In this document: positions 372-30,415 of the stretch, piece after piece | Position numbering within the stretch: position 1 is the first letter of the stretch | How the letters are laid out: every line of letters begins with the position of its first letter | DNA from: a virus | Reading direction: 5' to 3' (one strand) | UHGV virus genome: UHGV-1682877 | Length of the DNA stretch: 64,000 bases | Translations under genes and position numbers: made by a program | Notes under the pieces: model-generated | What the model saw: the letters and a program-made list of their open reading frames with translations, nothing else | What the model was told of the DNA's origin: nothing | Databases searched by the model: none

Positions 372-1094
372 ATGATTCCTGGTCTTTATGCAAACTATCA
401 AAAACAATGGGGCCAAAACACTATTTGGATTATTTCTGACCTTCACTTTGGCGATAAAGAATTGCAGAAGGGCATTGCTAAACGTCCTTCTGATGAACAA
501 CTTTTAAAGAATATTAACTCTTGCGTTGGTAAGAAAGATACTCTTATTGTCTTGGGTGATGTAGGCGATTTATCTTACGTCCGCAAGCTCAAAGGTTATA
601 AAGTTCTTATTAAAGGAAACCATGATGCAGGTTCTTCACTCTACCAAAGAGAAATTTTTTATAAACGTTATCCGCAAGACTACATTTCCTATAAAGGTGT
701 AAAAGCAGAAGTAAAAGAAATATTCCCTGAATATTCTTTTTCTATTGATGAAGGTTTTGGTTTTCACAATCCTTTTGATTGGTGGGAAGTAACTTTAGAT
801 AATAGACTTTTTGATGAAGTTTATGAAGGCGCATTAATTATTGGCGAAAAGCTTATTCTTTCACATGAACCTATTGCTAATATCAATTGGGCGCTAAACC
901 TGCATGGCCACAATCATTTTGGTATTCCGCATCCTGATAAATATCATTATAACTTTAATGCGGATGTGATTAATTACAAACCCATTAATCTAAATAAATT
1001 TATGAAAGAAGGTTATTTATCTAAAATTCCTTCTATTCATAGACTTACTATTGATTCAGCTACTGAAAGAAAACAAAAAAGAAAAAATAAATGA
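372..1094 (+). CDS. calcineurin-like metallophosphoesterase
   Basis: motifs ISDLHFGD, VLGDVGD, KGNHD, LHGHNH. Confidence 0.8.
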   Translation: MIPGLYANYQKQWGQNTIWIISDLHFGDKELQKGIAKRPSDEQLLKNINSCVGKKDTLIVLGDVGDLSYVRKLKGYKVLIKGNHDAGSSLYQREIFYKRYPQDYISYKGVKAEVKEIFPEYSFSIDEGFGFHNPFDWWEVTLDNRLFDEVYEGALIIGEKLILSHEPIANINWALNLHGHNHFGIPHPDKYHYNFNADVINYKPINLNKFMKEGYLSKIPSIHRLTIDSATERKQKRKNK

Positions 1095-1116
1095 TTACAA
1101 GATTTTGTAACCAAAA

Positions 1117-1153
1117 TTGAAAATTTAATAAAAATATATTATAATATATATAG
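1117..1153 (+). promoter_or_regulatory. repeated promoter family copy
   Basis: ttgaaaatttaataaaaatatattataatatatatagaaagttaaggaaag. Confidence 0.5.
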
Positions 1154-1369
1154 AAAGTTAAGGAAAGACAAAATAATATATAATATTTCTGAATGATGTA
1201 TTAAGAAAGTTTCTAAAGAGAAAACAATTAAAAGTATTCTTATACTTGGCAATATTAAATACGAAATCAAACAAAATAAAATCTCTACTTACAAGATAAA
1301 ACACAATAACCATCATTACATAATTATAAAAAGTATTGACGAGCTGATTTCAGTTGAGGAGGTATTACC

Positions 1370-1594
1370 ATGAAAGAAAAAAAGTGGTATATTGGAAACA
1401 CTGCCACAGAAAGAGATTGTTACTTTTTGTTCCAGGCAACGGAAGAAGAATTTACTTTTCTTCGTACAGTAATCGAGTCTTTCAATGGCGTAAGTAGCTG
1501 GTTGCTTTGTGAACCTTGGTCTGGCGTTCTCAGCGTATTTGACATTCCGTTTGACACAAAAGAAGAAGCAGAAAAATTTTATGGTGGAAATTGA
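1370..1594 (+). CDS. hypothetical small early protein (paralog of next gene)
   Basis: ORF; RBS gaggagg; shares MKxKKWxI...AT.EE motif with 1614-1859. Confidence 0.5.
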   Translation: MKEKKWYIGNTATERDCYFLFQATEEEFTFLRTVIESFNGVSSWLLCEPWSGVLSVFDIPFDTKEEAEKFYGGN

Positions 1595-1613
1595 CACTAA
1601 GGAGGTAAAAATA

Positions 1614-1859
1614 ATGAAAAAGAAATGGTGGATTTTAAATCATCATTCAGAAGGAAACTGTTTCTACATGGTTAATGCCACAGTAGAAGAAATAGATACA
1701 CTTCGCTGTCTTATTGACAACAATGCAGAAGTCAACGAAAACTGCCTGTATTATGATTATTATTGGGGCTGTGTAGAAGTAGTTAGTCCAGGTTTTGCCA
1801 CAAAGGAAGAGTGTCAAGAATACTTCAATACAGCCAAAGAATTTGCGTTCTTCAGATAA
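1614..1859 (+). CDS. hypothetical small early protein (tandem paralog)
   Basis: ATG at 1614 after RBS aaggagg; track ORF 1509 trimmed. Confidence 0.5.
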   Translation: MKKKWWILNHHSEGNCFYMVNATVEEIDTLRCLIDNNAEVNENCLYYDYYWGCVEVVSPGFATKEECQEYFNTAKEFAFFR

Positions 1860-1871
1860 GGAGATAAAACA

Positions 1872-3316: not shown

Positions 3317-3534
3317 GAACAAGATGTATTCTTTATAAAATTGATGAAAACTATAAAAACTCTTATTTGGGCTATGATTTTCTTAATATGACTACATATT
3401 TTACGCCTTCTTCTTCTACTGCTTTTATTTTTAATTCTGTAAAAATTGCAGAAAATTACCTCAAAACGCACAATCTTCAGCTAAACATTCAGACTATTTA
3501 TAATGAAAGGAATATTGAAAATGAGTGGTTTTAA
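3313..3534 (+). CDS. hypothetical protein
   Basis: ORF track. Confidence 0.4.
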   Translation: MRTRCILYKIDENYKNSYLGYDFLNMTTYFTPSSSTAFIFNSVKIAENYLKTHNLQLNIQTIYNERNIENEWF

Positions 3535-3742
3535 GACTATTGATAATCAGTCCACCTTGATTACAGTTTGCGGTGAATGTCCTTTTGCTTCTAAAAAGAC
3601 ATATGAATATACTAGAAAAAATCCTCATGACCCCTATGGAGATGTACAGTACATCTTTGAAAAGAAATGTGAAAGATATAATACTATTGTACCTGATACT
3701 TTGCCGGTTTGTGAAGCTATGGAATTTTGTTATAATGATTAA
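3503..3742 (+). CDS. hypothetical Cys-containing small protein
   Basis: ORF track. Confidence 0.4.
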   Translation: MKGILKMSGFKTIDNQSTLITVCGECPFASKKTYEYTRKNPHDPYGDVQYIFEKKCERYNTIVPDTLPVCEAMEFCYND

Positions 3743-3756
3743 AGGAGCTGATGATT

Positions 3757-3972
3757 ATGACTTATCAATATTATGAGTATAACATTGTATTGAAAAATAA
3801 TGAAATTCGCCAAGGTATTATTAGTGCGGAAGATTATTATTCTGCTCTTGATGATATTATCCATCAGTATAATAATATTAAATCTATTCTATTGTCAGAA
3901 ATTGATTCTCTTGGTAGTGTAAGTTTTTCTGAAGAAATTATTAATGAAATCAAAAGAAATGAGGTAGTTTAA
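3757..3972 (+). CDS. hypothetical protein
   Basis: ATG 3757 after RBS aaaggag. Confidence 0.4.
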   Translation: MTYQYYEYNIVLKNNEIRQGIISAEDYYSALDDIIHQYNNIKSILLSEIDSLGSVSFSEEIINEIKRNEVV

Positions 3973-3973
3973 C

Positions 3974-4216
3974 ATGGAAACTCATCACGGAATTATTAAT
4001 CATACTGAGCATTATTCTCTTGAAATCAATAGATTTATGAACGCTCTTGATGCAGTAATTGAATCTGCTATTGATTATGGCCAAGCAGAAGAAACAGATG
4101 AAGAAAGATTAACTCTTAAAACTCTTGATGATAATATTAATCTTTTGTTTAGAAAGTTGGGGATTTCTGCCGATTGGTACGCTCGCAATGGGCATCTTAT
4201 CAATAGGATTAAGTAA
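3974..4216 (+). CDS. hypothetical protein
   Basis: ORF track. Confidence 0.4.
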   Translation: METHHGIINHTEHYSLEINRFMNALDAVIESAIDYGQAEETDEERLTLKTLDDNINLLFRKLGISADWYARNGHLINRIK

Positions 4217-4223
4217 ATAAAAC

Positions 4224-4262
4224 AAAGGTCAACAGATTTTGTAACACTGTTGACCTTTTAAA
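4224..4262 (+). terminator. rho-independent terminator overlapping next promoter -35
   Basis: aaaggtcaacag/ctgttgaccttt hairpin plus T-run. Confidence 0.55.
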
Positions 4263-4286
4263 AATTTTATGGTATAATATTTATAG
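4250..4286 (+). promoter_or_regulatory. repeated promoter family copy
   Basis: ttgacc-17-tataat then atttatagaaaataaaaaaggag. Confidence 0.5.
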
Positions 4287-4311
4287 AAAATAAAAAAGGA
4301 GTTTTAAAAGT

Positions 4312-5985
4312 ATGGAAGATTTTATGAACAAATTAAATCTTACTAAAGATGAAGATTTATTAGATTTTTATTTTCAAACTTACGGCGATGATGAAGCTAT
4401 GCCAGCAAGAAATTATCTTAAATTTTGGCATGAAGCTAAAAGTGAATACTTGCTTCCTCTTTTCAAGAATCAGCTTATTTACAAGAAAGAAATCAGTTTT
4501 GATGTAGATACTGAAATTCTTATTTCAAGAATTCACAGACTTTTTATTAAAGATAATAAAAATTCTAATATCTATTACAAACTTAAAAATAGATTATTTG
4601 AAATTGTTGATAATTTATTTCCTAATGTAAGTAAAGATATTCGTATAAACAAAGATGTTTCTTGTGATTCATACCTCTGGGTAAGTTCTTGTTTAAATTT
4701 TCGCACTCTAGCTTTGAATAGAACTGCAACTACTTTTCAATATAATAATTTTAAAATCCCGCAAGGTACAAAAGTTTTTAAAGCTTTTAAATCTTTTGTT
4801 AATTTTGCATTGAAAAATAAACTTATTGAACAAATTGAGTATGATGAAATAAATGATTTTATTGAATATTTGCGGATTCAACATTCTCAAGTATTTAACC
4901 AAAAAAAGATTTCCGGCAATTTATGTATCTCAATTCATCCTATGGATTATATTACCATGAGTGATAATGGTAATAATTGGGAATCTTGTATGCGCTGGGG
5001 CGATGGCGGAGGAGATTATAAAGTAGGTACTTTGGAAATGCTTAATTCTCCTTCTGTTGTAGTTTGTTATCTTGAAAGCAAAAAACCTTGGAATATCAAT
5101 GATGATTATTCCTGGAATAATAAGAAATGGCGGGAATTATTTATTGTTGATAAAAATTTTATTTGTGGTATCAAAGGTTATCCATATCCTAGTGTTTATT
5201 TGGAGACTATGTGCGCTAATTGGTTAGCAGATTTAGTTGAAGAATATTATCACAATAAGTTTGATAGAACTAATTTCCGCTATGATAAAAAAATTACATT
5301 TGAAACTATTCTAATGTATAATGATATTAATGCAAATGGAGAATGTTTTTTATACTACTCAGAGGATGCTATTGAAGCAGATGAAGAAATTGAATTTAAT
5401 TACAGTGGATATGCAAGATGTTTGAGATGCGGTGAAATTATTTCTGAAGATTGGACAGATTCAGATACTTTATCTAGTATGTTTCTTTGTCCTAATTGCG
5501 CAGGTTTGATATTTTGTGCAGATTGTGGCGATTTAATTAATCCAGAAGATTATGGCGTTGAACACAATGGAAACTGGTATTGTGAAGAATGTATGTTAGA
5601 TCATGGCTTCTTCTGTAGTGAGTGTGATGAATTTCATTGGAATGATGAAGATGAAAACACCGCAATTTATGTTGCGTACAAAGATAAAAATTCTGAACAA
5701 GTAGAATTAAGAATACTTAATTATTTATGCTCTGATTGTATTAATGAAAATCTTGAATATGGAAATATTGTTGAAGTAGAATATGAAGGCAAAAAATATT
5801 ATGTTGCCACTGTTGATTTTATTACTTCAGAATATATTAGTCAAGTTTCTCGCTATGGCGATAAAGATGGACATAAAATGATTTCTACCTTTGCTTTTTA
5901 CCATGATTTAACTCTTAATAAAACAATCTTGTACAATCCTGAATACTTTATCAATAAGGAGTATTTAAATGAAGAAAATGACTAA
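4312..5985 (+). CDS. unknown-function protein, paralog family A, with C-terminal multi-Cys zinc-ribbon array
   Basis: 557 aa; core NWESCMRWGDGGGDY; C-terminal CxxC clusters; paralog of 8092-9396. Confidence 0.6.
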   Translation: MEDFMNKLNLTKDEDLLDFYFQTYGDDEAMPARNYLKFWHEAKSEYLLPLFKNQLIYKKEISFDVDTEILISRIHRLFIKDNKNSNIYYKLKNRLFEIVDNLFPNVSKDIRINKDVSCDSYLWVSSCLNFRTLALNRTATTFQYNNFKIPQGTKVFKAFKSFVNFALKNKLIEQIEYDEINDFIEYLRIQHSQVFNQKKISGNLCISIHPMDYITMSDNGNNWESCMRWGDGGGDYKVGTLEMLNSPSVVVCYLESKKPWNINDDYSWNNKKWRELFIVDKNFICGIKGYPYPSVYLETMCANWLADLVEEYYHNKFDRTNFRYDKKITFETILMYNDINANGECFLYYSEDAIEADEEIEFNYSGYARCLRCGEIISEDWTDSDTLSSMFLCPNCAGLIFCADCGDLINPEDYGVEHNGNWYCEECMLDHGFFCSECDEFHWNDEDENTAIYVAYKDKNSEQVELRILNYLCSDCINENLEYGNIVEVEYEGKKYYVATVDFITSEYISQVSRYGDKDGHKMISTFAFYHDLTLNKTILYNPEYFINKEYLNEEND

Positions 5986-6346
5986 AAAAGATTATTATAA
6001 AAAAATTCTCCAACATTTTGGAGATAATTGCCCAGAATCAGAAATGATTAGAAATTTCCTTGAAAATGAAATTATGTTGCTTGATAGAAAAACAGAGTCT
6101 GCAAAGTTAAAAGCTATTGAAGCAAAAGAAAAAGGTGATGAATTGCGCGAACAGATTTATGACATTTTGCCCAGCTGCGAGGAAAATCCCATCCCTGTTT
6201 CTAAAATAAAAGAAATTTTAAATAATGATTTAATTACTTCTCAAAAAATTTCTGCACGTTTAACTCAGTTATTTAAATTAAACAAAATTGAGAAACAAGA
6301 AATTTCTTTTGAAGGTCAGAAAAAGACTGGATATAGAAAAATTTAA
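5969..6346 (+). CDS. hypothetical protein
   Basis: ORF track; terminator follows. Confidence 0.45.
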   Translation: MKKMTKKDYYKKILQHFGDNCPESEMIRNFLENEIMLLDRKTESAKLKAIEAKEKGDELREQIYDILPSCEENPIPVSKIKEILNNDLITSQKISARLTQLFKLNKIEKQEISFEGQKKTGYRKI

Positions 6347-6352
6347 GAAGAT

Positions 6353-6385
6353 AAAGAGGAGAATTTTTTCTCCTCTTTTTTATTA
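6353..6385 (+). terminator. rho-independent terminator
   Basis: aagaggagaa/ttctcctctt hairpin plus TTTTTT. Confidence 0.6.
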
Positions 6386-6423
6386 CCATAATTATAATAA
6401 CATATTTTTTGCTAAAAATAAAG

Positions 6424-6480
6424 TTTGAAACTTTTAGCTTGGCTTAGGTCGGGGCGGAGACGTGCGAATAAAAATAGCTT
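6424..6480 (+). promoter_or_regulatory. conserved GC-box element (copy 1 of 3)
   Basis: tttgaaacttttagcttgg...tcggggcggagacgtgcgaataaaaatag; near-identical copies at ~13916 and ~48250. Confidence 0.45.
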
Positions 6481-6514
6481 TAACAAATTTTTTAAAGGAT
6501 AAAGGAGAATAACA

Positions 6515-7291
6515 ATGTTATATAGTTTAAATACAAGACTAAAAAAATTAATGCCAGATGAAATCAAATGTCAAATAAATAGATTAGGAGACATTTTTGA
6601 TTTAATTAAAGAAAATCCAGACATTAGATGTAATATTCAATACACTAATATGGGCGAATTATCTGAAAAAAAACTGGATGAACAAATTGATTTCATTAAA
6701 GAAGTGGCAAAAGATTATACAATAGCTGTAATTAATTTCCAAGATTTGCGGAAATTAAAAGCAAAAGGCTATAATGTATATTTAGATTTGCCGGTTTCAG
6801 ATTGGGAAACTTTTAATAATTTAAAAAATATTGGCGTTTCAGATATTTACATTGACGGAGCTTTAGGATTCCAAATGGAGAAAATTGGAAAAGCAAAAGG
6901 AAAAATAAAGATTAGGGTTACTCCGCATATGTCGCCAAATGCGCAATGGTCATCTTCAGATAATGAAAATTCTTTTTATATTCGACCAGAAGATATAGAT
7001 AATTATTCTAAATATGTAGATATTTTAGACTTTAGAGATAACAGCAAAGATGCAGAAGAAACTTTATTCAATATTTATAAAAGGAAGATTTTTCCTTTTG
7101 ATTTAAATAATTTAATTAGACAACTGAATTTACCAACTAATAATATTTATATTGCAAATAGTTTTTGTTCAAACAGATTGAATTGCGGGCAAAGATGTCA
7201 GGAGCCTGATATTTCTTGTCATTTATGTAGAAATGCAATTTTAATTTCTAATAAAATGAATGAATATATTAGTTTAACGGAAAAAAATTGA
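6515..7291 (+). CDS. hypothetical protein with Cys-rich C-terminus
   Basis: ORF track. Confidence 0.45.
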   Translation: MLYSLNTRLKKLMPDEIKCQINRLGDIFDLIKENPDIRCNIQYTNMGELSEKKLDEQIDFIKEVAKDYTIAVINFQDLRKLKAKGYNVYLDLPVSDWETFNNLKNIGVSDIYIDGALGFQMEKIGKAKGKIKIRVTPHMSPNAQWSSSDNENSFYIRPEDIDNYSKYVDILDFRDNSKDAEETLFNIYKRKIFPFDLNNLIRQLNLPTNNIYIANSFCSNRLNCGQRCQEPDISCHLCRNAILISNKMNEYISLTEKN

Positions 7292-7342
7292 TTTTCTTTA
7301 AAAAATATAATATAATATTTATATAATAAAAGAAATAATAAG

Positions 7343-7377
7343 TTTTATAAAACTCACCAAAGGTGAGTTTTATAAAA
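7343..7377 (+). terminator. terminator-like hairpin (same core as 33550)
   Basis: aaactcacc aaa ggtgagttt hairpin. Confidence 0.45.
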
Positions 7378-7400
7378 CAAATAAGAAAGATGGGGATGAT

Positions 7401-8126
7401 ATGAAACTAAATAATTATGATTATAGATTTTTAAAAAAGTTGTTACAGTCTACACAGCATGAACTATTAGAATTTTTACCCAAAGCGCTTAATGCCATTT
7501 ACCATAAAGAAGATATTATTATTACCAATAATTATATTTGCGCTAAAGGTGATATCCCAGTAGCTTTAGTTGCTCATTTAGATACCGTATATCCAGAACC
7601 ACCTAAACAGATTTTTCATGATCCAGAATATAATATTATTTGGGGAACAAATGGTTTGGGTGCAGATGATAGAGCAGGCGTTTTTGCTATTTTAAATATT
7701 TTAGAATGTGGCTATAAGCCTACTGTAATTTTTTGTTGCGATGAAGAAAATGGCGGTTTAGGTGCTTATCAACTGACTAAAGATTTTTCAAAACCTTTCA
7801 CCAATTTTGAAATGCTTATTGAGCTAGACCGCCAAGGAACAAAAGATGCAGTATATTATTCATTAAATAACACTGATTTTGAAAATTATATCAATAATTA
7901 TGGATTTGAAACTGCGGTAGGTGTATTCACAGATATTTGTATTCTAGGCCCAATTTGGGATGTTCCCGCAGTTAATCTTTCTGTTGGTTATTTTAATGAA
8001 CATAGTTATGCGGAAATGCTTTATTACCCAGCTTTATTTGATACTATTGATAAGGTTTGTTTAATTTTAGAAGAAAAGAGGACAAAAGACTTTGAATTTA
8101 CAGAAATCACTGGAAGCAGCAATTAA
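7401..8126 (+). CDS. M20/M28/M42-type zinc metallopeptidase-like protein
   Basis: AHLDTV, GADDRAG, DEENGGLG motifs. Confidence 0.55.
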   Translation: MKLNNYDYRFLKKLLQSTQHELLEFLPKALNAIYHKEDIIITNNYICAKGDIPVALVAHLDTVYPEPPKQIFHDPEYNIIWGTNGLGADDRAGVFAILNILECGYKPTVIFCCDEENGGLGAYQLTKDFSKPFTNFEMLIELDRQGTKDAVYYSLNNTDFENYINNYGFETAVGVFTDICILGPIWDVPAVNLSVGYFNEHSYAEMLYYPALFDTIDKVCLILEEKRTKDFEFTEITGSSN

Positions 8127-9396
8127 ATATTCTCAAAATTATTCTTTTCCTCTTGATTGTGAAGAAATAATTACTTCTTGGGAAATTAATAAAGCTAAAT
8201 TGAACAAAGAATATTTGAACGAAAAAATTACTTTACAATTAACTGATGAACCAGTATCTATTACTCTTGATGAAACTTTTAGAAGAGATAGTTTTTTTGA
8301 ATTTATTGATAAAGTTATGAATTTGTTGGAACCATCTGAAGATGCTCCAGATAGTGAAATAGAACTATATTACCATTTTTATGATTTTCTTAGTGATAAT
8401 GTAAATAATTTTTATTCTAATATTGTTACTTCAGATTTTTTAAATATTGTAAAACGTGGAAGTAAAATTATTAAATCTTTTAAATATTTTGTTAAAGATA
8501 AACAAAAGCTCAGAAAAATCCAGGATATGGCAAGTGAATTAATTCAAACACAAAAAATTTCTGGATATTTATTTGCTTCTATTGATCCATTTGAATTTTT
8601 AACTTCTAGTGAGAATAATTGCAATTGGCGTTCTTGTCATTCATTAGATGGAGATTATCGTGCGGGAAATATTAGCTATATGAATGATCAATCTACTATT
8701 ATTGTATTTTTAGCAAATGAAGAAAAAATCAATGTAGACTGTTTACCAAAATCTATCAAAGTCTATAATAAAAAATGGAGAATGTTAATTCATATAAATC
8801 AAAATGATAATATAATTTATTATGGAAGGCAATATCCTTCTTATAATAAAAATTTATTAGATTTAGTTTATAGTAAATTATTTTGTGATAAAGGTTTTAT
8901 GCCTCCTAAAAAGGTTACTTTTGACCAAATTAATTTAAATCAGGATAATTGTATTGATTTAGACCACAATTATATGGCATTAAATAACAAAGTTTTTGAT
9001 ACTTTAGAGTTAATTGATATTCCAGAAAATTCGTTAAATTATAATGATATTGTATATTCTTCATTCTACCAAACGCAAGTCAGTATTAATAGAGAATATA
9101 AATATTATTATAGTAAAGATAAGCAAAAGACAATAGATTTATTTTTAACTAAAGTTGGTTATCCTGTTGCTTGCGCTTGCGGATGTGGCAGAAAAGTAAG
9201 TAATTCGGCAAGCTTTATTTGTGATACTTGTGCAGAAAAATATAATGCTGAAGGAAATTTATATCCAATTTGCTCTTGTTGTGGACAAAGAATAAATTTA
9301 AAAGATAAACAGAGTTATAAACAAGAAGAAGAAGGTCTTTATTGTAGTCTTTGTTGGCGAGGAATTAAGTCACTTGAACGTCAATTGAATTTTTAA
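8092..9396 (+). CDS. unknown-function protein, paralog family A member 2, with C-terminal zinc ribbons
   Basis: NCNWRSCHSLDGDY core aligns with 4312 gene; TTG start overlaps upstream gene by 35 nt, true start uncertain. Confidence 0.5.
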   Translation: MNLQKSLEAAIKYSQNYSFPLDCEEIITSWEINKAKLNKEYLNEKITLQLTDEPVSITLDETFRRDSFFEFIDKVMNLLEPSEDAPDSEIELYYHFYDFLSDNVNNFYSNIVTSDFLNIVKRGSKIIKSFKYFVKDKQKLRKIQDMASELIQTQKISGYLFASIDPFEFLTSSENNCNWRSCHSLDGDYRAGNISYMNDQSTIIVFLANEEKINVDCLPKSIKVYNKKWRMLIHINQNDNIIYYGRQYPSYNKNLLDLVYSKLFCDKGFMPPKKVTFDQINLNQDNCIDLDHNYMALNNKVFDTLELIDIPENSLNYNDIVYSSFYQTQVSINREYKYYYSKDKQKTIDLFLTKVGYPVACACGCGRKVSNSASFICDTCAEKYNAEGNLYPICSCCGQRINLKDKQSYKQEEEGLYCSLCWRGIKSLERQLNF

Positions 9397-21349: not shown

Positions 21350-21350
21350 T

Positions 21351-21846: not shown

Positions 21847-21909
21847 TAAAGATACTCACAGCAATTTATTTTTTATAATGGGTATAAAAAAATAAAGTAT
21901 CTTGTATTT

Positions 21910-21985: not shown

Positions 21986-21987
21986 AT

Positions 21988-22063
21988 GGTTCGCTAGTTC
22001 ATTAGGTAGAACACTTGCCTTTTAAGCAAGATGTGCTGGGTTCAAATCCCAGGCGAGCCACCA
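21988..22063 (+). tRNA. tRNA-Lys (anticodon TTT)
   Basis: loop cttttaa, T-arm ctgggttcaaatcccag, CCA. Confidence 0.7.
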
Positions 22064-22437: not shown

Positions 22438-22522
22438 TGCCAGAATGTTGGAATTGGTAGACAAAGAAGTCTCAAAAACTTTCGCTTTATGCGTGCGGGT
22501 TCGAATCCCGCTTCTGGTACCA
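22438..22522 (+). tRNA. tRNA-Leu (anticodon CAA)
   Basis: acceptor gccagaa/ttctggt, loop ctcaaaa, long variable arm, T-arm gcgggttcgaatcccgc, CCA. Confidence 0.65.
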
Positions 22523-22734: not shown

Positions 22735-24258
22735 ATGGAAAATAAGATGCTTAATATTTTGAAGGAAAAGAATACTCATTCTATCACTGAGAACGGCGGT
22801 TTGACTTATAATTCTACTATGAATGGAATTATGGATTTGTTTGCTCTTGGTGGTGCTTATCGAAATCGCTCAGATGATGATTGTATTTTTCTTTTTAAGA
22901 AGGCTTTTGAGGAAGATATTTCTTATGCTTTGAAGTGTCTCTTTTATTTGCGAGACGTACGCGGTGGACAGGGAGAACGCAGATTTTTTAAGGTCGTAAC
23001 TTCTTGGTTGGCAGTTAATCACACCGAGGAAATGCGTAGAAATCTGAAGTATGTTCCTGAGTATGGTCGCTGGGATGATTTGTATGCTTTTGTTGATACT
23101 CCGCTTGAGGCAGATGCTTTTAAGACTATGTATCATCAGCTTGCTCTTGATGTTCAGTGTAAAACTCCTTCTCTTTTGGCTAAGTGGTTGAAGTCTGAAA
23201 ATACTTCTTCTGCAGAATCTCGTATGCTTGGAGCTAAAACCAGAATGGCTTTTAATATGTCTCCTAAGCAGTATCGCAAGATTCTCTCTATTCTTCGTGA
23301 AAGAATTAGAGTTTTGGAAAGACTGATGAGTGAAAACCGTTGGGATGAAATTGAATTTGATAAGATTCCTTCTAAGGCAGGTCTAAAGTATCGCAATGCT
23401 TTTGCAAAGCACGATATTGAAAGAGAAAAGTCTAATAAGGTAACTTATGAAGAGTTTGTAAAGGATTCTAATACTAAGGTCAATGCTGATACTTTGAATC
23501 CCGCAGATGTAGTTCATGCTGTTGTTTCTAAATTTCCCTATTATAGAGGAAATTTTAATGGAACTGATGTGGAGAGAGCTGCACTCAATAAGTATTGGGA
23601 TAATCTAAAGGATTATTTTAATAATGCTGTTTTTGACGGTGTTGCTGTCGTTGATACTTCTGGTTCTATGTGTGGTTTTTATGGTAGTGAGAAAACTATT
23701 GCACCTATTGATGTAGCTATTTCTCTTGGTATGTATTGTGCTGAGAAGTGTAATCCCAATTCTCCCTGGTATGGACATTATATTACTTTTTCCCGAACTG
23801 CAAGATTGGTACCTGTTGAAGGTATTGATTTTGTTGATAAGGTGCGTAGAATTTATCAAAAGAATCTTTGTGAGAATACCAACATTAAAAGTATTTTTGA
23901 TTTGCTATTGAGCAATGCTATTAAATATAATATTCCTAATGAAGAAATGCCTAAAAACATTGTAATCATTAGTGATATGGAATTTGATTATTGCGCTGGT
24001 TACTATAATAGTGATGAATACAAGTCTGAAATGGAAAAGATTATGCAAGTTTGGAACTCTCATGGTTACACTACTCCACATTTGATTTTCTGGAATGTTG
24101 ACGCTCGAAATGATAATATTCCCATGAAGATGAAGGATGGTATTACTTTTATTTCTGGTTATTCTGCGGTAACTTATGAAATGTTGATGACTGGTAAAAC
24201 TGGTTTTGATTTGGTTTTGGAAAAGTTGAACAATAAGAGATATGAGGTAATCAAGTAA
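22735..24258 (+). CDS. vWA/MIDAS-domain protein with helical N-domain (DUF2828-like; possibly TROVE/Ro60-like)
   Basis: DTSGSM MIDAS motif near residue 305; N-terminal ENGGLTY...DLFALGGAYR...RDVRGGQGERR. Confidence 0.5.
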   Translation: MENKMLNILKEKNTHSITENGGLTYNSTMNGIMDLFALGGAYRNRSDDDCIFLFKKAFEEDISYALKCLFYLRDVRGGQGERRFFKVVTSWLAVNHTEEMRRNLKYVPEYGRWDDLYAFVDTPLEADAFKTMYHQLALDVQCKTPSLLAKWLKSENTSSAESRMLGAKTRMAFNMSPKQYRKILSILRERIRVLERLMSENRWDEIEFDKIPSKAGLKYRNAFAKHDIEREKSNKVTYEEFVKDSNTKVNADTLNPADVVHAVVSKFPYYRGNFNGTDVERAALNKYWDNLKDYFNNAVFDGVAVVDTSGSMCGFYGSEKTIAPIDVAISLGMYCAEKCNPNSPWYGHYITFSRTARLVPVEGIDFVDKVRRIYQKNLCENTNIKSIFDLLLSNAIKYNIPNEEMPKNIVIISDMEFDYCAGYYNSDEYKSEMEKIMQVWNSHGYTTPHLIFWNVDARNDNIPMKMKDGITFISGYSAVTYEMLMTGKTGFDLVLEKLNNKRYEVIK

Positions 24259-24312: not shown

Positions 24313-25374
24313 ATGATATTATTAAATGATGATAATAGACACAGAGATTTTACAGGTGTAACTCGTTTTCACAATGCAGGTTATTTTGGAGAAAGAGTAA
24401 ATGCCGCAAGTGGAGAAACCTGGGATGTTAATAGATATAATCCAGATAATTTAGTAAGAAATTGCTTAAAGGATAAACAATTTTCAGATGAACATCCAAT
24501 AAATACTGCGGCAACATTTTTTCAAGTAGCTCCAAAAGCTCATCTATTTATGCTTTATTCCATTGATGGCAGTTATGGTAGTGGAGATAATTATAACTCT
24601 AAATTTTTTAATGAATCAGTAGAAATTATTGAAAAATATAATATTACTAATATGTTTACCTCTTTAAATTGTAGTAGACATACTAAATTTTTTGAAGATT
24701 TAAAAAATTGGTATATTAAACATCCTAGTTTTAAACCCTTTTGGTGCGCAGGAAATGATTCTTCTAAAAAATATAATCCAATTATGGAAATTGAAGAAGT
24801 AATTGGTGTAGCCGCTTATACTTTAATGGTAAATGGTACAGTAAATCCTGCTTATTATTCTAGTATTAGTAGTTATGTAGACTTTTCTGCACCTAGTATG
24901 ATTTATTTAAATCCGCAAGCTACAAAACCAGACGCAGCAACTTATTCCAATTCTGGTACTTCTTTTTCTACACCTTGGTTATGTGGAATGAGCTGTTTAG
25001 TAGATGATTTCTTTATTGATAAAAAAGGATTACCTCTAACAAGAGAAGGAATGATTCAATTCTTTAAAGATAATTGTAAAGATATAGGCGATAAGGGTAT
25101 TGATCCAAAAACAGGATTTGGCGCAGTAATTTTACCTGAACCAAATTCTATTGATATTGATAAATATTATAATATTGGGAGGACAAATATGAGTACATTA
25201 GATAAATTTAAAGATAAAAATGATATTTCTAATTGGGCTAAAGCAAGTATTGAATGGGCTGTTAATACAGGTATTCTTCAAGGTGACGATAAAGGCTATC
25301 TTTTACCCAAAGCTTACCTAACTAGAGAGCAAATGGCAGTTATGTTAGAGCGTTTTAAAAATATTATAAAATAA
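24313..25374 (+). CDS. subtilisin-like serine protease with C-terminal SLH-like wall-binding domain
   Basis: SNSGTSFSTPW catalytic Ser motif; C-terminal WAVNTGILQGDDKGYLLP...LTREQMAVML. Confidence 0.6.
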   Translation: MILLNDDNRHRDFTGVTRFHNAGYFGERVNAASGETWDVNRYNPDNLVRNCLKDKQFSDEHPINTAATFFQVAPKAHLFMLYSIDGSYGSGDNYNSKFFNESVEIIEKYNITNMFTSLNCSRHTKFFEDLKNWYIKHPSFKPFWCAGNDSSKKYNPIMEIEEVIGVAAYTLMVNGTVNPAYYSSISSYVDFSAPSMIYLNPQATKPDAATYSNSGTSFSTPWLCGMSCLVDDFFIDKKGLPLTREGMIQFFKDNCKDIGDKGIDPKTGFGAVILPEPNSIDIDKYYNIGRTNMSTLDKFKDKNDISNWAKASIEWAVNTGILQGDDKGYLLPKAYLTREQMAVMLERFKNIIK

Positions 25375-25380
25375 TTTTAA

Positions 25381-25410
25381 GGGAGTCAAAATGACTCCCT
25401 TTTTATTTTT
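25381..25410 (+). terminator. rho-independent terminator
   Basis: gggagtca/tgactccc hairpin plus T-run. Confidence 0.65.
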
Positions 25411-25479
25411 TTAAAAAAATATTATATAATATATATAGAAAGTTAAGGAATAAATAAATAAGAAAGAAGTTGAAATTTT

Positions 25480-25749: not shown

Positions 25750-25768
25750 ATAAAGGAGTTTGATATTT

Positions 25769-27037
25769 ATGGCATACTATGGTTTAGTAACTAAAATTGA
25801 AAATGTAAGAAAAGACCCTAATTCTGATAGACTCTATTTGGCTGATTGTTTTAGAGAAGGAGTTATTGTAGGCCCTAATATGAAGGAAAGCGAGTTGGTT
25901 CTTTATCTTCCTACTGATGGAGCTATTGAGCGTTGGTTTGGTGATGAGTTTAAACTTTTCCGCAAGAATTTAGATGGTACCGCGCAAGGTGGTTATTTGG
26001 AAAATAATGCTCATATTAGAGCAATTAAGCTAAGAGGTAATGAATCTTCTGGTATTGTTATTTCTTATTCTACTATTGTTGAGCATTTTGGTGAGCAAAA
26101 TTGGAAAGATGGCGATCAGGTCACTGAAATTAATAATAAGCTATTTTGTTATAAATATATTCCTAAACCTTCGGCTATTCCTCGCACTACTCCTAAAACT
26201 TCTTATAAAGGTCGTAAAGCAGCTGGAATTAAGTATCCTGATTTTGCCATGCATATTGATACTGCCCAATTAGCTTACAATCTTGGAATTTTTAGACCTG
26301 GAGATAAAATTAATCTAACCCTTAAAATGCATGGAACTAGCCAGCGTAGTGCATATACTTGGGCAGAATATCCTATGTCTTGGTTTAGAAAGCTATTTCA
26401 CATGAAACCTAAGAGAAAGTTGCAGTATGTTTTAGGTACTCGTAGAACTGTTGTTACTACTGATGGGGTAGGTTATTATGGTAATGACAAATTTAGATTT
26501 AGTCACCATGAAGCTTTAAAACCTTATCTCGATGAAGGTATGGAAGTTTTTTATGAAGTAGTTGGTTGGTATGGAGCAAAAGAAAATGAAACTATTATGC
26601 CAATTGTAGATAATAGTAAAATTAATGACAAGAAATTTATGAAAAAGTTTGGTAAGTATACTACTTTTTCTTATGGTTGTACTCCTGGTCATTCTGCAAT
26701 GTGGATTTATAGAATTACTTCTCATAATGGTGAATATGAATATTCTCCAGAGGAAATTACTACTTGGTGTAATGAATATGGTTTTAATCGTGTTCCTATT
26801 ATTGAGGATTTTGAATTTACTACTGTTGATGACTTGCTCGCTAAAATTGACAAATATTTTGAAGATATTGTTGACCCAGTTGGTTTAACTCATGTTAAAG
26901 AAGGTGTAGTAGTTAGAATTGCTAATAGACGTACTTTTACTGCATTAAAACAAAAAACCTGGGAGTTTAAAGTCCTTGAAGGTCTAGTTAAAGATACTGA
27001 AACCCAGCCCGATATGGAAGAAGCACAGGAGGTTTAA
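25769..27037 (+). CDS. Rnl2-family RNA ligase with N-terminal tRNA-binding OB domain
   Basis: N-terminal LVTKIENVRKDPNSDRLYLADCF (tRNA-binding fold); KMHGTS motif I like T4 Rnl2 KIHGTN; EGVVVR motif IV; KQK motif V. Confidence 0.6.
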   Translation: MAYYGLVTKIENVRKDPNSDRLYLADCFREGVIVGPNMKESELVLYLPTDGAIERWFGDEFKLFRKNLDGTAQGGYLENNAHIRAIKLRGNESSGIVISYSTIVEHFGEQNWKDGDQVTEINNKLFCYKYIPKPSAIPRTTPKTSYKGRKAAGIKYPDFAMHIDTAQLAYNLGIFRPGDKINLTLKMHGTSQRSAYTWAEYPMSWFRKLFHMKPKRKLQYVLGTRRTVVTTDGVGYYGNDKFRFSHHEALKPYLDEGMEVFYEVVGWYGAKENETIMPIVDNSKINDKKFMKKFGKYTTFSYGCTPGHSAMWIYRITSHNGEYEYSPEEITTWCNEYGFNRVPIIEDFEFTTVDDLLAKIDKYFEDIVDPVGLTHVKEGVVVRIANRRTFTALKQKTWEFKVLEGLVKDTETQPDMEEAQEV

Positions 27038-27039: not shown

Positions 27040-27489
27040 ATGACTTTAGAAATTATGCACAATGACATGATGCAGGCTTTGAAGAATGGTGATACTCAAA
27101 AGAAGAATGTACTTTCCAATATGATTGGTGAAGTACAAAAAGCAGCAATTACGCCAAAAGGCAGAATTGAAATTACCGAAGAGCTTGTTAATAATACTTT
27201 AATCAAGTATCAAAAGATGATTCAAGAAATGATTGATACTTGTCCAGAAAACCGCAAAGAGTTATTTATTCAATATAATCTTGATATGGCTGTTGTAAAG
27301 CAGTATGCACCACAACTTCTCACTGACAAAAAAGCAATTAAAACTCAAATTGAAAAGATGCTTGCAGAAAATGAGCTTGATGCAATTAAGGCAAATAAAG
27401 GTAGAGCAATGAAACTTTTTGCTCCTGTTTTTAAGGGTAAGGCAGATATGAAAATTGTTAATCAAATTGTGTCGGAGGTAATGACCTAA
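27040..27489 (+). CDS. YqeY/GatB-domain protein
   Basis: architecture matches YqeY family, C-terminal GKADMKIVNQIVSEVM. Confidence 0.6.
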   Translation: MTLEIMHNDMMQALKNGDTQKKNVLSNMIGEVQKAAITPKGRIEITEELVNNTLIKYQKMIQEMIDTCPENRKELFIQYNLDMAVVKQYAPQLLTDKKAIKTQIEKMLAENELDAIKANKGRAMKLFAPVFKGKADMKIVNQIVSEVMT

Positions 27490-27890: not shown

Positions 27891-27937
27891 TTAAGGGCAA
27901 AGATTAAGATCTTTTGCCCTTAATTTATTTTTTTAAA
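27891..27937 (+). terminator. rho-independent terminator
   Basis: ttaagggcaaa/tttgcccttaa hairpin plus T-run. Confidence 0.6.
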
Positions 27938-27985
27938 AATTTATATTATAATATATATAGAAAGTTAAGAAAGGAATTGATATTT

Positions 27986-28699
27986 ATGAATAAGAGTAAA
28001 GTTTATTGTTTTACTGACCTTCATGGCAATTCAAATTTGTTTAAGCAGATTAAAAATTTCATTCAAGCAGAAGATAAAGTGTTCGTGCTGGGTGATGTAA
28101 TTGACAGAGGGACAGAAGGTTGGAAAATACTTAAAGAAATTTTAAAAGATGAAAGATTTACTCTTCTTAAAGGAAATCATGAACAAATGTTAGTAGATTC
28201 TGGAAGAGAATTTTTAAAAAATGAAAGATGTCTATATGGAGATGATATTTATCGTCACATGAATAATGGAGGTTTATCTACTTTACTAGACTGGTCTAAA
28301 GAAAAAAATGCTATTGAGTATTTAAATTTAATTAATAAACTTCCAGTTTATGAACAATACACTAATAAAAATGGAATTAAAATTCATTTAAGTCATGCAG
28401 GTTTTTCTCCTAATAATATTTCTGGTGATGAATTTGATTTTCTTTGGAATAGATTACATTATAAATTTAGATGTTTAATTAATCCAAATGAATTAATTAT
28501 TCATGGCCATACCCCAATTCCTCTAATGATAGAAGATATAGGAGAATTTCGCAATCCTCCCAAATATGAAGGTGGAGCTTGTTGGTATAATAATAATCAA
28601 AAGGTTAATCTTGATTTAGGTACTCATTGGAGTAAGCAAATTATCCTTTTTGATTTAGATACTTTTGATGAACATATCTTTTCTGCTCAAGGAGAATAA
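27986..28699 (+). CDS. calcineurin-like metallophosphoesterase (PP2A/ApaH-like)
   Basis: FTDLHGN, VLGDVIDRG, KGNHE, IIHGHTP. Confidence 0.8.
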   Translation: MNKSKVYCFTDLHGNSNLFKQIKNFIQAEDKVFVLGDVIDRGTEGWKILKEILKDERFTLLKGNHEQMLVDSGREFLKNERCLYGDDIYRHMNNGGLSTLLDWSKEKNAIEYLNLINKLPVYEQYTNKNGIKIHLSHAGFSPNNISGDEFDFLWNRLHYKFRCLINPNELIIHGHTPIPLMIEDIGEFRNPPKYEGGACWYNNNQKVNLDLGTHWSKQIILFDLDTFDEHIFSAQGE

Positions 28700-28701
28700 T
28701 T

Positions 28702-29106
28702 ATGATACTATTAATACTAGGATTAACATTACCTTTTACTGGAGCAATAATTTTAGGTTGTTTTATATATGATTATGATGAATATAAACTAGATTGTAAA
28801 ATTGTAAGGAAACATAAATATGTAGTTTTAAAATTAAAAGAATTTATTTCTTTCTATAATTTAAGTCCAGAAAATTATGAACTACAAAAATATTCGGTTG
28901 TTTTTTTAAAGCCTTTCTCTACACGAAAATATTTAACAGACAATAATATACGTATTATTTTTACAAATTATGTAGAAATGTTAAAATATAAAATTTGGAA
29001 AAAGACAGAAATTAAAAAAATAAATACAGAAAAAGAAAGAAAAGAACTTAAAGAATATTTTGAAATTGTAAAAAAACAAATTGAGGAGTTTGATAAAAAT
29101 GTCTAA
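28702..29106 (+). CDS. hypothetical membrane protein
   Basis: N-terminal hydrophobic segment. Confidence 0.4.
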   Translation: MILLILGLTLPFTGAIILGCFIYDYDEYKLDCKIVRKHKYVVLKLKEFISFYNLSPENYELQKYSVVFLKPFSTRKYLTDNNIRIIFTNYVEMLKYKIWKKTEIKKINTEKERKELKEYFEIVKKQIEEFDKNV

Positions 29107-29374
29107 AGACCCTAGAAAATATGAAATGCATGATTTTTATTGTATGAATTGCGGAAAGAAGTCAATGTCAATTCCTCGATTAAGAGGACGTTTTAGAGAA
29201 GTTGGGCATAAGAAAGTTATGTATTGCCCTCATTGTAAAGAAACTGTTAATATGGTAGAATGTAGAAATGATGAAGAAGCGTATAATTTTAAACTAGATT
29301 TTGAAGAAGGACTTTTTAAAGAAGAAGCACAAAATAGTATTTCTTATGTAAAGGAGTTTGGTATTTATGATTAA
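29099..29374 (+). CDS. zinc-ribbon protein
   Basis: CMNCG ... CPHCK. Confidence 0.45.
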   Translation: MSKDPRKYEMHDFYCMNCGKKSMSIPRLRGRFREVGHKKVMYCPHCKETVNMVECRNDEEAYNFKLDFEEGLFKEEAQNSISYVKEFGIYD

Positions 29375-29870
29375 TTTGCATATTCTTTGCGGTATTCCTG
29401 CTTCCGGTAAATCTACCTGGGCAAAACAACAGAATGGTAAAATTATCTCAAGAGATGAAATCCGCAAGAATTATGTAGGCGAAAATCCTGGAAAAAATTA
29501 TTTTAGTAAAGAAAAACAGGTATATAAAGAAATGATTGCAAATATTAAAATCGCAATTAAAGAAAATGTAGAAAATATTTATATAGATGCGACTCATATT
29601 GATATTGTTTCAAGAACTAAACTTTTAAACAATTTTTTTAATCTGAAAGATAAGAATAATATTAATCTTACTTTTGATTATTTTCCTATTCTTTTAGATG
29701 TTGCTTTAAAAAGAAATTCTGAAAGAGAAGGTTTTGCTAAAATTCCAGAAGAAGCAATAAAAAATTTTTATTTTAAATCTTCTATTCCTTCCAAAGATGA
29801 GATGAATAAATATCTTGATTGGGGTTTTCATAATGTGAATACTATTTTGCATTATACTGAGGAGGTGTAA
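29367..29870 (+). CDS. pnk: polynucleotide kinase (T4 Pnk kinase-domain-like)
   Basis: GIPASGKSTWA P-loop; KRNSEREGFAKIPEEAIKNFY parallels T4 Pnk KRNSKRGTKAVP..MY. Confidence 0.7.
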   Translation: MINLHILCGIPASGKSTWAKQQNGKIISRDEIRKNYVGENPGKNYFSKEKQVYKEMIANIKIAIKENVENIYIDATHIDIVSRTKLLNNFFNLKDKNNINLTFDYFPILLDVALKRNSEREGFAKIPEEAIKNFYFKSSIPSKDEMNKYLDWGFHNVNTILHYTEEV

Positions 29871-29872
29871 TA

Positions 29873-30415
29873 ATGGTTTGGTTTACCAGTGATCTTCATC
29901 TAGGCCATAATAAGCCCTTTCTTTATGAACCAAGAGGGTTTAAGAATATTCAAGAACATGATAACGCAATTATTGAAAATTGGAATAAAATTATTCGTCC
30001 TAATGATAAAGTTTATGTGCTTGGCGATTTGATGCTAAATGATAATGAAGCAGGAATTGAAAAAATTAAACAATTAAAAGGACAAATTTATGTAGTTAGA
30101 GGAAACCATGATAGTGAAGTTCGTGTAAATTTATATAATAATTGTAACAATATTATTAAAGTAACTGAAGGTCAATTTTTAAGATATGGTAAATATCATT
30201 TTTATTTAAGTCATTATCCTACACTTTGTAGTAATTTTGATAATGAGAAACCTCTTAAAGCAAGAATGATTAGTTTGTGCGGACATTCTCATAGTCAGGA
30301 TGCTTTTGCGAATTGGGATAAAGGTCTTATTTATCATGTAGAATTAGATGCTCATAATAATTTCCCTGTTTCTATTGATTCGATTATTAAGGATATTAAA
30401 AATAGAATTAAGTAA
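29873..30415 (+). CDS. calcineurin-like metallophosphoesterase, candidate 3'-phosphatase partner of Pnk
   Basis: TSDLHLGH, VLGDLMLND, RGNHD, LCGHSH. Confidence 0.7.
   Translation: MVWFTSDLHLGHNKPFLYEPRGFKNIQEHDNAIIENWNKIIRPNDKVYVLGDLMLNDNEAGIEKIKQLKGQIYVVRGNHDSEVRVNLYNNCNNIIKVTEGQFLRYGKYHFYLSHYPTLCSNFDNEKPLKARMISLCGHSHSQDAFANWDKGLIYHVELDAHNNFPVSIDSIIKDIKNRIK

Follow-up and report, generated by a model that had tools for sequence, protein, structure and literature searches.

Healing and ligation of RNA ends is the classic answer of phages to host defences that cleave tRNA, as in the use of PseT and RNA ligase 1 (Rnl1) by T4 against PrrC, and many newly found defence systems cut tRNAs. We have analysed a stretch of 64,000 nucleotides (nt) of the virus genome UHGV-1682877 (referred to here as the window) that contains three genes for calcineurin-like metallophosphoesterases (MPEs), termed MPE-A, MPE-B and MPE-C. 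MPE-B and MPE-C lie in an apparent transcription unit with a stand-alone polynucleotide 5′-kinase and a Zn-ribbon protein, adjacent to a second unit encoding an RNA ligase and a YqeY-like protein. The system is a variant of the known RNA repair by polynucleotide kinase (Pnk), phosphoesterase and ligase. We regard it as somewhat probable, on the sequence evidence, that the kinase, MPE-B, MPE-C and the Zn-ribbon protein act together with the ligase-YqeY unit in a pathway for the repair of breaks in RNA (probably tRNA), in which two MPEs would replace the fused phosphatase.

Repair by T4 PseT and Rnl1 and by bacterial Pnkp provides the parallel for the proposed pathway (PMC3592404, PMC1920235, PMC3675462). 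In RNA-repair systems of phages the phosphatase is occasionally a calcineurin-like or HD domain (PMC7824862), and in rV5-like phages a calcineurin-like phosphoesterase is sometimes found alongside an RNA ligase and a nucleotide kinase (PMC9503650). Gene neighbourhoods also connect Thg1 with Pnk and RNA ligase (PMC2904730).

Like T4, the window encodes a kinase homologous to the kinase domain of PseT with a ligase a few genes upstream, as is rnlA in phage RB16. Unlike PseT, the window kinase is a stand-alone protein of 167 amino acids (aa) with no HAD domain, flanked by two MPE genes, and unlike Rnl1 the ligase is of the phrog_968 type with a weak DRB0094-like match in its N-terminal part. With the Pnkp-Hen1 system of Clostridium thermocellum the locus shares a kinase, a binuclear MPE and a ligase. 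A profile of MPE-B detects the phosphatase domain of the C. thermocellum enzyme (CthPnkp; 4j6o, 2e-4), and phrog_8238 (a kinase-phosphatase-ligase of 737 aa) matches both the window kinase and MPE-B. However, the modules of the window are all separate open reading frames (ORFs), there are two MPEs rather than one, and MPE-B resembles lambda phosphatase far more than it does the phosphatase domain of Pnkp. The components of Pnkp1-Rnl-Hen1 are likewise split over several polypeptides (PMC4411300), and the window kinase matches Pnkp1 (4xrp). It differs from HD-Pnk in having no HD domain. The main survey of RNA repair, by Burroughs & Aravind in 2016, covers calcineurin-like phosphoesterases in RNA-repair neighbourhoods, which is a lead and not a test. 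In a literature search whose coverage did not extend to that survey, no paper describing or testing a cassette of MPE-B, Zn-ribbon, kinase and MPE-C was found.

Three metallophosphoesterases of separate families

The three ORFs listed in the preliminary description of the window are all present on the + strand, at 372-1094 (MPE-A, 240 aa), 27986-28699 (MPE-B, 237 aa) and 29873-30415 (MPE-C, 180 aa). Each exceeds the cut-off of 21.5 bits for Pfam Metallophos (PF00149), with scores of 32.9, 47.4 and 35.7 bits for A, B and C, and MPE-C is also above the threshold for PF12850 (38.3 bits against a cut-off of 27). A six-frame regular expression scan of the window for DxH...GD...GNH[DE] matched these three ORFs and nothing else. 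The motifs of MPE-A are DLH (23-25), GDVGD (62-66), GNHD (82-85), SHEP (H165) and GHNH (179-182). The corresponding motifs are DLH (11-13), GDVIDR (36-41), GNHE (63-66), SHAG (H137) and H-GHTP (173-177) in MPE-B, and DLH (7-9), GDLML (51-55), GNHD (77-80), SHYP (H114) and GHSH (137-140) in MPE-C. The complete set DxH, GDxxD, GNH(D/E) and GHxH had been ascribed to all three proteins; this is correct for MPE-A, but MPE-B has GHTP, lacking the second histidine of GHxH as in the lambda-phosphatase form, and MPE-C has GDLML, lacking the second aspartate of GDxxD. Leucine is invariant at that position across the C family.

Each MPE was aligned with 28-30 diverse metagenomic homologs, giving 31 members for the A family, 30 for B and 29 for C. 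The metal ligands and the catalytic histidine are invariant or nearly invariant within all three families, and there are zero ligand substitutions in MPE-A, -B and -C themselves. Substituted active-site residues, which had been suggested as the sign of a non-catalytic copy, were looked for; the metal ligands are intact in all three, and by their sequences the proteins look catalytically competent.

The genes had been described as three paralogs that differ in length and inserts. The difference in inserts is real, since in an hhalign comparison MPE-A has ~60 aa between motifs III and IV that are not in MPE-C. Paralogy holds at the level of the superfamily, but these are not recent copies. MPE-A and MPE-C are 27% identical over 81 aa by pairwise BLASTP, and comparison of their profiles (hhalign; 97.7% probability, 144 columns) covers the whole length save the insert of MPE-A. 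With MPE-B, BLASTP aligns only the motif II-III segment of either A or C, and the B-C profile comparison covers motifs I-III only. By sequence the three represent different families that separated long ago, and related phage contigs contain hundreds to thousands of orthologs of each; searches of metagenomes gave >2,200 matches for C, >2,800 for A and ~280 for B.

On homology MPE-A and MPE-C are two branches of a small Aq_1665-like clade. Both match phrog_547 'phosphoesterase' (C 6.5e-43, A 2e-26), and among solved structures they match almost exclusively Aq_1665 (1xm7), which their profiles detect with E-values of 2.1e-11 for C and 4.7e-5 for A. This is the best match of MPE-C and the only significant sequence or structure match of MPE-A. 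AlphaFold models of the two proteins (confidence expressed as pLDDT 93.5 for C and 87.8 for A) both have 1xm7 as the top Foldseek match (C 3.8e-11, TM 0.72; A 1.4e-8), with YfcE, MJ0936, Mre11 and Rv0805 among the further matches of C. The insert of MPE-A (residues ~88-150) is modelled as a beta-alpha-beta-beta unit with no significant structural match; KH-domain-like Foldseek matches to it were non-significant (E ~0.2-1), and we make no claim that it is an RNA-binding domain. The basic C-terminal helix of MPE-A (222-239) is conserved in its family.

Like Aq_1665, YfcE and MJ0936, MPE-A and MPE-C have a compact single-domain MPE fold without an arginine following the GD of motif II. In contrast to YfcE (where it is Cys) and MJ0936 (Asn), both keep the histidine of GNH (His79 in MPE-C) (PMC2190708). 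MPE-A differs from Aq_1665 in its insert and basic tail, and Aq_1665 itself has no assigned function. MPE-C falls below the YfcE cut-off (TIGR00040; 23.9 against 56.25 bits).

A tblastn search gave 1,624 phage records at 31-33% identity. The phrog_547 'phosphoesterase' genes of the Herelleviridae (Staphylococcus Kayvirus, Enterococcus Schiekvirus) belong to the same group as MPE-C and MPE-A, but there no Pnk kinase is detectable beside the MPE genes. The cultured Schiekvirus Enterococcus phage GVEsP-1 also has a tandem trio of MPEs, two of them C-like and one lambda-phosphatase-like (5992-8166 of the fetched locus), so that a repertoire of several MPEs is not unique to the window. A stand-alone homolog of MPE-C with 52% identity is found on the chromosome of Ruminococcaceae bacterium KHP2 (825-kb contig; locus positions 4968-5570), beside GNAT and ACT-domain genes that are uninformative on function. 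This suggests that the C family has been exchanged between Clostridia and their phages.

The kinase unit and its conservation

The kinase (29367-29870, + strand; 167 aa from ATG 29367, the mechanical start being TTG 29358) contains GIPASGKSTWAK, SRDEIR and LKRNSER. It matches the AAA_33 family and phrog_505 'polynucleotide kinase' (2.8e-17), and among known structures the tRNA kinase PSTK and Pnkp1 of the Pnkp1-Rnl-Hen1 repair complex. BLASTP aligns it with RB16 PseT (29% identity, E 3e-14) over the kinase domain only (residues 1-129 of 295), with the P-loop (GxPxSGKSTWAK), SRD(E/D)IR and LKRNxxRG in common. Thus the P-loop, the catalytic Asp of the RD motif and the lid arginines that mark a PseT-type 5′-kinase are all present. 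A tblastn search with the kinase against cultured phages gave 150 records, and most of 40 sampled rows fell on genes annotated as pseT or polynucleotide kinase. Its score against the bacterial Pnkp model TIGR04075 is 17.9 bits, compared with a cut-off of 750.

The window kinase (167-170 aa) has no phosphatase domain. The HAD (DxDxT) 3′-phosphatase domain is absent, as the alignment ends at residue 129 of the 295 of PseT and MPE-C follows as a separate gene, and a Pfam scan of the kinase found no HD domain. In RB16 this kinase family is fused to HAD, and rnlA lies three genes upstream of pseT. In the Bacillus phages KLEB27-3 and PBC2 a homologous kinase of 331 aa carries a fused HD domain (PF01966) and adjoins an RNA ligase; the fusions are at 3501-4496 and 3504-4499 of the respective fetched loci, and the PBC2 gene is annotated only as 'hypothetical protein'. 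These fusions beside ligases indicate that a ligase and a phosphoesterase partner normally accompany this kinase family. The window kinase lacks a fused partner, and two MPE genes flank it instead.

Five genes (MPE-B, orf134, Zn-ribbon, kinase and MPE-C) all abut or overlap. The region that opens this unit (27893-27963, + strand) consists of an imperfect terminator-like hairpin at 27893-27921, identified by eye, and a T-run, followed by a promoter motif at 27947-27963. The motif is a 17-nt sequence, TATAATATATATAGAAA, which occurs 15 times at ≤2 mismatches in a scan of the window where 0.22 occurrences are expected; 14 copies are on the + strand (332-40942) and one is on the - strand (57011-57027). 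TTGAAA is located 5′ to it at -35 spacing, and a conserved leader with a ribosome-binding site 3′ (gTTAAGgAAAGGA). From its sequence the motif is probably an early/middle class of phage promoter read by a host sigma-70-type polymerase. After the copy at 27947 the next of this class is at 39824, and two hairpins following MPE-C (30422-30455, and 30466-30482 then TTTTT; 30422-30490 in all, + strand) are the likely end of the unit. From this layout we infer that MPE-B and MPE-C are co-transcribed with the stand-alone kinase and the Zn-ribbon gene.

Within the unit MPE-B starts at ATG 27986 with an AAAGGA ribosome-binding site 8 nt upstream; the mechanical start, TTG 27914, falls inside the terminator/promoter region. 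The product of orf134 (28702-29106, + strand) has a hydrophobic N-terminus and no family match, and is found only in close relatives. The Zn-ribbon protein (29099-29374, + strand; 91 aa from ATG 29099, mechanical TTG 29081; GAGGAG ribosome-binding site at 29083-29088) has the pattern CxxC...CxxC and matches phrog_1257, and its gene is conserved just 5′ of the kinase. The ATG of MPE-C at 29873 is located just past the kinase stop codon (29868-29870), and its GAGGAGG ribosome-binding site lies inside the kinase gene. One of the MPEs had been placed as a partner of Pnk; this position is that of MPE-C, and it recurs in related phages.

The ligase unit lies immediately upstream. It is opened by a terminator hairpin at 25379-25401 and a promoter motif at 25425-25441 (25379-25441, + strand), and contains the genes for the RNA ligase, the YqeY protein and two small ORFs, ending at the hairpin 27893-27921. 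The ATP-dependent RNA ligase (25760-27037, + strand; 425 aa) matches phrog_968, scores at the threshold for Pfam RNA_ligase, and has the weak match to the N-terminal part of DRB0094-type ligases; no relative in the PDB is detectable by its sequence. The YqeY/GatB-C-like protein (27040-27489, + strand) was identified by family matches.

MPE-A, 27 kb away, appears to be transcribed separately from these units. A sigma-70-type promoter at 309-348 on the + strand (TTGAAA, 17 nt, TATAAT, then conserved ATATATAGAAA; motif copy 332-348) precedes the gene, with a terminator hairpin at 237-264 just 5′ of it. Because the next copy of the motif is at 1140, MPE-A looks monocistronic, and as judged by these signals it is probably an early gene.

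The conservation of these arrangements was examined in loci taken from IMG/VR by way of the family alignments of C, A and B, and from GTDB genomes by the C alignment. Window proteins were mapped on the locus ORFs by phmmer, loci were dereplicated at 90% identity of the central protein, and neighbours were counted if they were on the same strand within ~6 kb. In the 46 IMG/VR clusters centred on MPE-B, the kinase and MPE-C are both present in 36, the Zn-ribbon gene in 32, PIN-PhoH in 32 and the RNA ligase in 22. Of the 78 IMG/VR clusters centred on MPE-C, 54 have the kinase, which in all 54 is upstream on the same strand, 42 the Zn-ribbon gene, 38 PIN-PhoH and 18 MPE-B. The B subfamily is thus tied to the kinase-C pair even more tightly than is C to the kinase (36/46 compared with 54/78). 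The order B-[Zn-ribbon]-kinase-C is retained down to 32-38% identity. The 27 clusters centred on MPE-A have fewer such neighbours, i.e. the kinase in five, MPE-C in five, a fourth MPE type (MPE-D) in five, Thg1 in four, the RNA ligase in four and MPE-B in two.

In one sub-clade the order is [MPE-D]-ligase-B-A-Thg1-kinase-C, so that all three MPE types of the window are in a single cluster with two further RNA-end enzymes. MPE-D is 5′ of the ligase in many relatives, including one that is near-identical to the window. We note that a Thg1-like 3′-5′ nucleotidyltransferase adjoins MPE-A or MPE-B, 5′ of the kinase, in several related phages (loci L100-L105, L108, L205-L210, L216-L217 and L224-L226). 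Both Thg1 and MPE-D are absent from the window (phmmer, E < 1e-4).

Proposed healing of RNA ends and alternative functions

Since members of this kinase family carry HAD in T4-like phages and HD in those of Bacillus, MPE-B and MPE-C would be expected to supply the healing of 2′,3′-phosphate ends. The two MPEs would then do what is done in T4 PseT by the HAD domain, in HD-Pnk by the HD domain and in bacterial Pnkp by a lambda-phosphatase-like domain. The ends to be healed would be those left by metal-independent ribonucleases, anticodon nucleases among them, with MPE-C opening the 2′,3′-cyclic phosphate and MPE-B then removing the resulting 2′- or 3′-phosphate. In this proposal the substrates, the order of the steps and the biological role are what is conjectured, and homology, motif integrity, operon layout and linkage are what was observed.

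The division of labour is suggested by the arginine of motif II. This residue (Arg237 of CthPnkp, Arg53 of lambda phosphatase) is needed for monoesterase activity but not for diesterase activity (Keppetipola & Shuman, PMC2190708), and it is missing from the diesterase-only enzymes Mre11, MJ0936 and Rv0805 (PMC2190708). The histidine of GNH is a determinant of cyclic phosphodiesterase activity, and nucleoside 2′,3′-cyclic phosphates are hydrolysed by lambda phosphatase itself (PMC2190708). The motif-II arginine is present in 30/30 members of the B family, compared with 0/29 of the C family and 0/31 of the A family, and the GNH histidine is invariant in all three. MPE-B, which keeps both the arginine (GDxxDR) and the histidine (GNHE), is therefore predicted from its sequence to be a diesterase and a monoesterase. 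MPE-C and MPE-A have lost the arginine and kept the histidine, and are predicted to be diesterases only, able to open cyclic phosphates.

The cassette of MPE-B, Zn-ribbon, Pnk and MPE-C occurs in many large phages of gut Clostridia, and it is possible, although we hold this part only tentatively, that it is an uncharacterised end-healing machine operating by just these two steps on the cyclic (>p) end. If so, 3′-end healing would be split between two different binuclear MPEs, with MPE-A and a Thg1-like 3′-5′ polymerase added in the sub-clade described above, and the lambda-phosphatase family would gain a natural role on nucleic-acid ends. The RNA-centred surroundings, comprising 17 phage tRNAs, a phrog_850 RNA-binding protein, YqeY and PIN-PhoH, fit a repair module.

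MPE-B belongs to the lambda-phosphatase/NinI-like family, having near full-length similarity and the signatures GDxxDR, GNHE, NGG, WxR (WNR in MPE-B, with R156) and GHTP (HGHTP). Its best match is phrog_246 'NinI-like serine-threonine phosphatase' (3e-30), and it detects lambda phosphatase (1g5b) at 1.5e-7 as a single sequence and 1.8e-16 as a profile; the next PDB matches of the profile are ApaH (9e-7), PP1 (5e-6), with PP1/PP2A coming after ApaH, and the phosphatase domain of CthPnkp noted above. In the B family D11, H13, D40, R41, H65, E66, N94, H137, W154, R156, H173 and H175 are invariant, and D37 and N64 are present in 29/30. The equivalents of Arg53, His76 and Arg162 of lambda phosphatase are retained together with every catalytic residue. 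However, the identity is only ~25-30%, MPE-B has its own conserved C-terminal extension (YxxNHKxxLD...LDTFDEHIF), and its gene is located in a Pnk/RNA-ligase operon rather than in a nin region as in lambda.

This likeness to NinI and PrpA, with all the lambda-phosphatase catalytic residues kept, raises the possibility that MPE-B is a protein Ser/Thr(/Tyr) phosphatase countering host kinase signalling or a kinase-based defence, its place in the operon being incidental. Ser/Thr phosphatase activity had been put forward in the preliminary description, but for MPE-B we find it the less likely reading, and indeed an unlikely one. Lambda phosphatase itself has no established physiological substrate and does cleave nucleoside 2′,3′-cyclic phosphates (PMC2190708), the PrpA- and PrpB-type equivalog cut-offs of NCBIfam are widely missed (37.9 against 326 bits and 33.3 against 332 bits), and the B subfamily is found with Pnk and MPE-C in 36 and with RNA ligase in 22 of its 46 dereplicated loci. 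The lambda-phosphatase-like gene of phiCD211 sits in a replication module, so that linkage to RNA repair is specific to the B subfamily rather than a general trait of lambda-phosphatase-like genes.

The profile match to ApaH also bears on function. ApaH is the top NCBIfam match of MPE-B (3e-10), and its structures come second for the profile, so that MPE-B might act on dinucleoside polyphosphates or Np4-capped RNA. Alternatively the MPEs might function in nucleotide salvage, possibly tied to NAD-salvage genes, as homologs of MPE-A are near genes for Nampt, a PRPP-synthetase-like protein and NAD synthase on one contig. Yet the ApaH score is 39.8 bits compared with a cut-off of 176, the match is confined to the N-terminal half of MPE-B, and the neighbourhood of NAD genes was seen at a single locus. 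We take this to be the least probable of the explanations considered here. For MPE-B the removal of phosphate from RNA ends remains our preferred role.

For MPE-A and MPE-C the missing arginine is shared with the diesterase-only Mre11 and MJ0936 (PMC2190708), and either or both might be nucleases (Mre11/SbcD-like, or like the Pseudomonas putida MPE) that degrade or process host or phage DNA or RNA, e.g. in host shut-off or the trimming of damaged ends, instead of taking off terminal phosphates. This would be consistent with the presence of Mre11 and MJ0936 among the Foldseek matches of MPE-C, with the conserved basic helix of MPE-A, and with weak NCBIfam matches of both to the ligase-associated endonuclease PdeM (TIGR04123); the PdeM scores are, however, far under the cut-off (17.4 bits for A and 20.4 for C, against 150). 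The P. putida MPE is a single-stranded DNA endonuclease (PMC7826289), and one experimentally studied phage MPE, gp48 of A10ZJ24, is reported to damage host DNA (PMC12287305). This mycobacteriophage cluster-A type, which includes Bxb1 gp47, was considered as a relative and rejected, because the similarity is limited to the GNHD motif (hhalign probability 1.2% with the C family and 3.0% with the B family), and its host-DNA-damage function is therefore not transferable to the MPEs of the window. The tight coupling of MPE-C to a 5′-kinase fits end healing better, and a nuclease role seems to us improbable. From its sequence MPE-A is most likely a nucleic-acid phosphodiesterase, encoded in some related phages within the same operon, between MPE-B and the Thg1-like polymerase; that it acts as such in the window, expressed from its own early-type promoter, is proposed with low confidence.

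The conserved histidine that determines cyclic phosphodiesterase activity could be taken to indicate that at least one of the three MPEs hydrolyses cyclic mono-, di- or oligonucleotide immune signals (of CBASS, Pycsar or type III CRISPR) or nucleotide alarmones. Some MPEs are cyclic-nucleotide phosphodiesterases, and Rv0805 is among the Foldseek matches of MPE-C. To our knowledge, no MPE is found among the characterised anti-signalling enzymes of phages. A role against such signals has been predicted for calcineurin-like orthologs of T5 A1 (PMC7824862). However, RNA ligase, Pnk, Thg1 and PhoH are the prevailing genes in the neighbourhoods, and PADLOC gave no matches for the three MPEs, the kinase, the Zn-ribbon protein, the orf134 product or the DUF2828 protein. 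The degradation of cyclic-nucleotide defence signals that had been suggested earlier is thus unsupported, and we consider it very unlikely.

A number of observations weigh against the RNA-repair pathway that we favour. Members of the C family without a kinase are found in Staphylococcus Kayvirus, in the most distant IMG/VR loci (31-36% identity) and on the Ruminococcaceae chromosome, so that MPE-C is not intrinsically a partner of Pnk. The linkage of MPE-A to RNA repair is weak (kinase 5/27, Thg1 4/27, ligase 4/27), and in the window the gene is far removed from the operon. A search of every ORF in the fetched loci gave no fusion of kinase and MPE; the longer kinase ORFs there carry HD or an unassigned extension. 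Lambda-like phosphatases also occur in unrelated contexts, as in phiCD211, and the assignments of the A and C families are by homology, their only solved relative (1xm7) being functionally uncharacterised. The calls of promoters and terminators are all pattern matches only. Reasoning by analogy, MPE-B alone could perform both healing steps as does CthPnkp, leaving MPE-C without a required role, and other invariant arginines (R38 in MPE-A and R21 in MPE-C) might replace the one missing from motif II.

If RNA repair is nevertheless the correct reading, this would be a third mode of pairing one kinase family with a 3′-phosphoesterase, after the HAD and HD fusions, in a cassette widespread among the uncultured phages of Clostridia in gut and rumen. 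It would also provide a substrate hypothesis for two large families (phrog_547-like and NinI-like) annotated in thousands of phage genomes. If it is wrong, what has been found is three ordinary MPE genes of the kind already seen in Herelleviridae.

Neighbouring genes and the phage genome

Downstream of MPE-C are orf145 (30587-31024, + strand), a gene conserved in the mapped loci between MPE-C and PIN-PhoH, and the PIN-PhoH gene itself (31079-32350, + strand), a conserved neighbour whose product was identified by family matches to PIN_4 and the PhoH ATPase. A Hen1-like methyltransferase was not found among the ORFs of the window scanned with Pfam, which included every ORF of ≥300 aa and part of the smaller ones.

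The 17 tRNA genes are in two arrays on the + strand, of ten (10813-13823) and seven (21264-22522), which are mentioned here for context as possible substrates or back-ups for RNA repair. A GIY-YIG gene of the homing-endonuclease type is located within the first array (12359-13006). Also in this array, at 13040-13112, ARAGORN calls a tRNA to which it assigns no identity and a four-base anticodon (tgaa), which may be a frameshift-suppressor-like tRNA or a mis-call. Just 5′ of the second array, at 18794-20795, the gene for a 419-aa radical-SAM protein overlaps that for a 249-aa phrog_6085 protein, and this pair may be RNA/tRNA- or nucleotide-modifying. The second array is directly 5′ of the region of the RNA-binding protein and the ligase. 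The former, a DUF2828+DUF7788 protein (22735-24258, + strand; phrog_850 'RNA-binding protein'), follows the array directly, and its homologs adjoin MPE-C in 13/78 dereplicated loci.

The window is AT-rich (~30% G+C), with nearly all genes on the + strand up to ~60.3 kb. It encodes DnaB, RecJ, PolIII-alpha, gyrase B/A and DNA ligase for replication, ThyX, anaerobic NrdD, dUTPase and RNase H in nucleotide metabolism and related functions, and an S8 peptidase with an SLH domain. This gene set is typical for a large phage of anaerobic Firmicutes, and the window corresponds to the early and replication part of a gut phage genome of ~135 kb. A megablast search with both regions of interest against 50,697 phage records gave zero matches, so that close relatives in culture are lacking. 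Human-gut metagenomes contain contigs of 120-138 kb that have 96-99% protein identity and ~98% DNA identity to the window. Bins of metagenome-assembled genomes that contain related contigs are mostly assigned to Clostridia (Lachnospiraceae, Oscillospiraceae, Ruminococcaceae, Acutalibacteraceae), with some Bacilli.

A mosaic joint is found at 24313-25401, just upstream of the ligase unit. A relative with ~98% DNA identity from 25402 onward differs 5′ of this point (1-1532 of the relative's locus), where it has MPE-D (GNHEEHP/GHFH) and two ORFs in the place of the S8 peptidase-SLH gene of the window; the terminator at 25379-25401 marks the position of the break. Towards the other end of the window (~60300-64000) the GC skew and gene orientation switch near 60.3 kb, and beyond this point every ORF of ≥90 aa is on the - strand.

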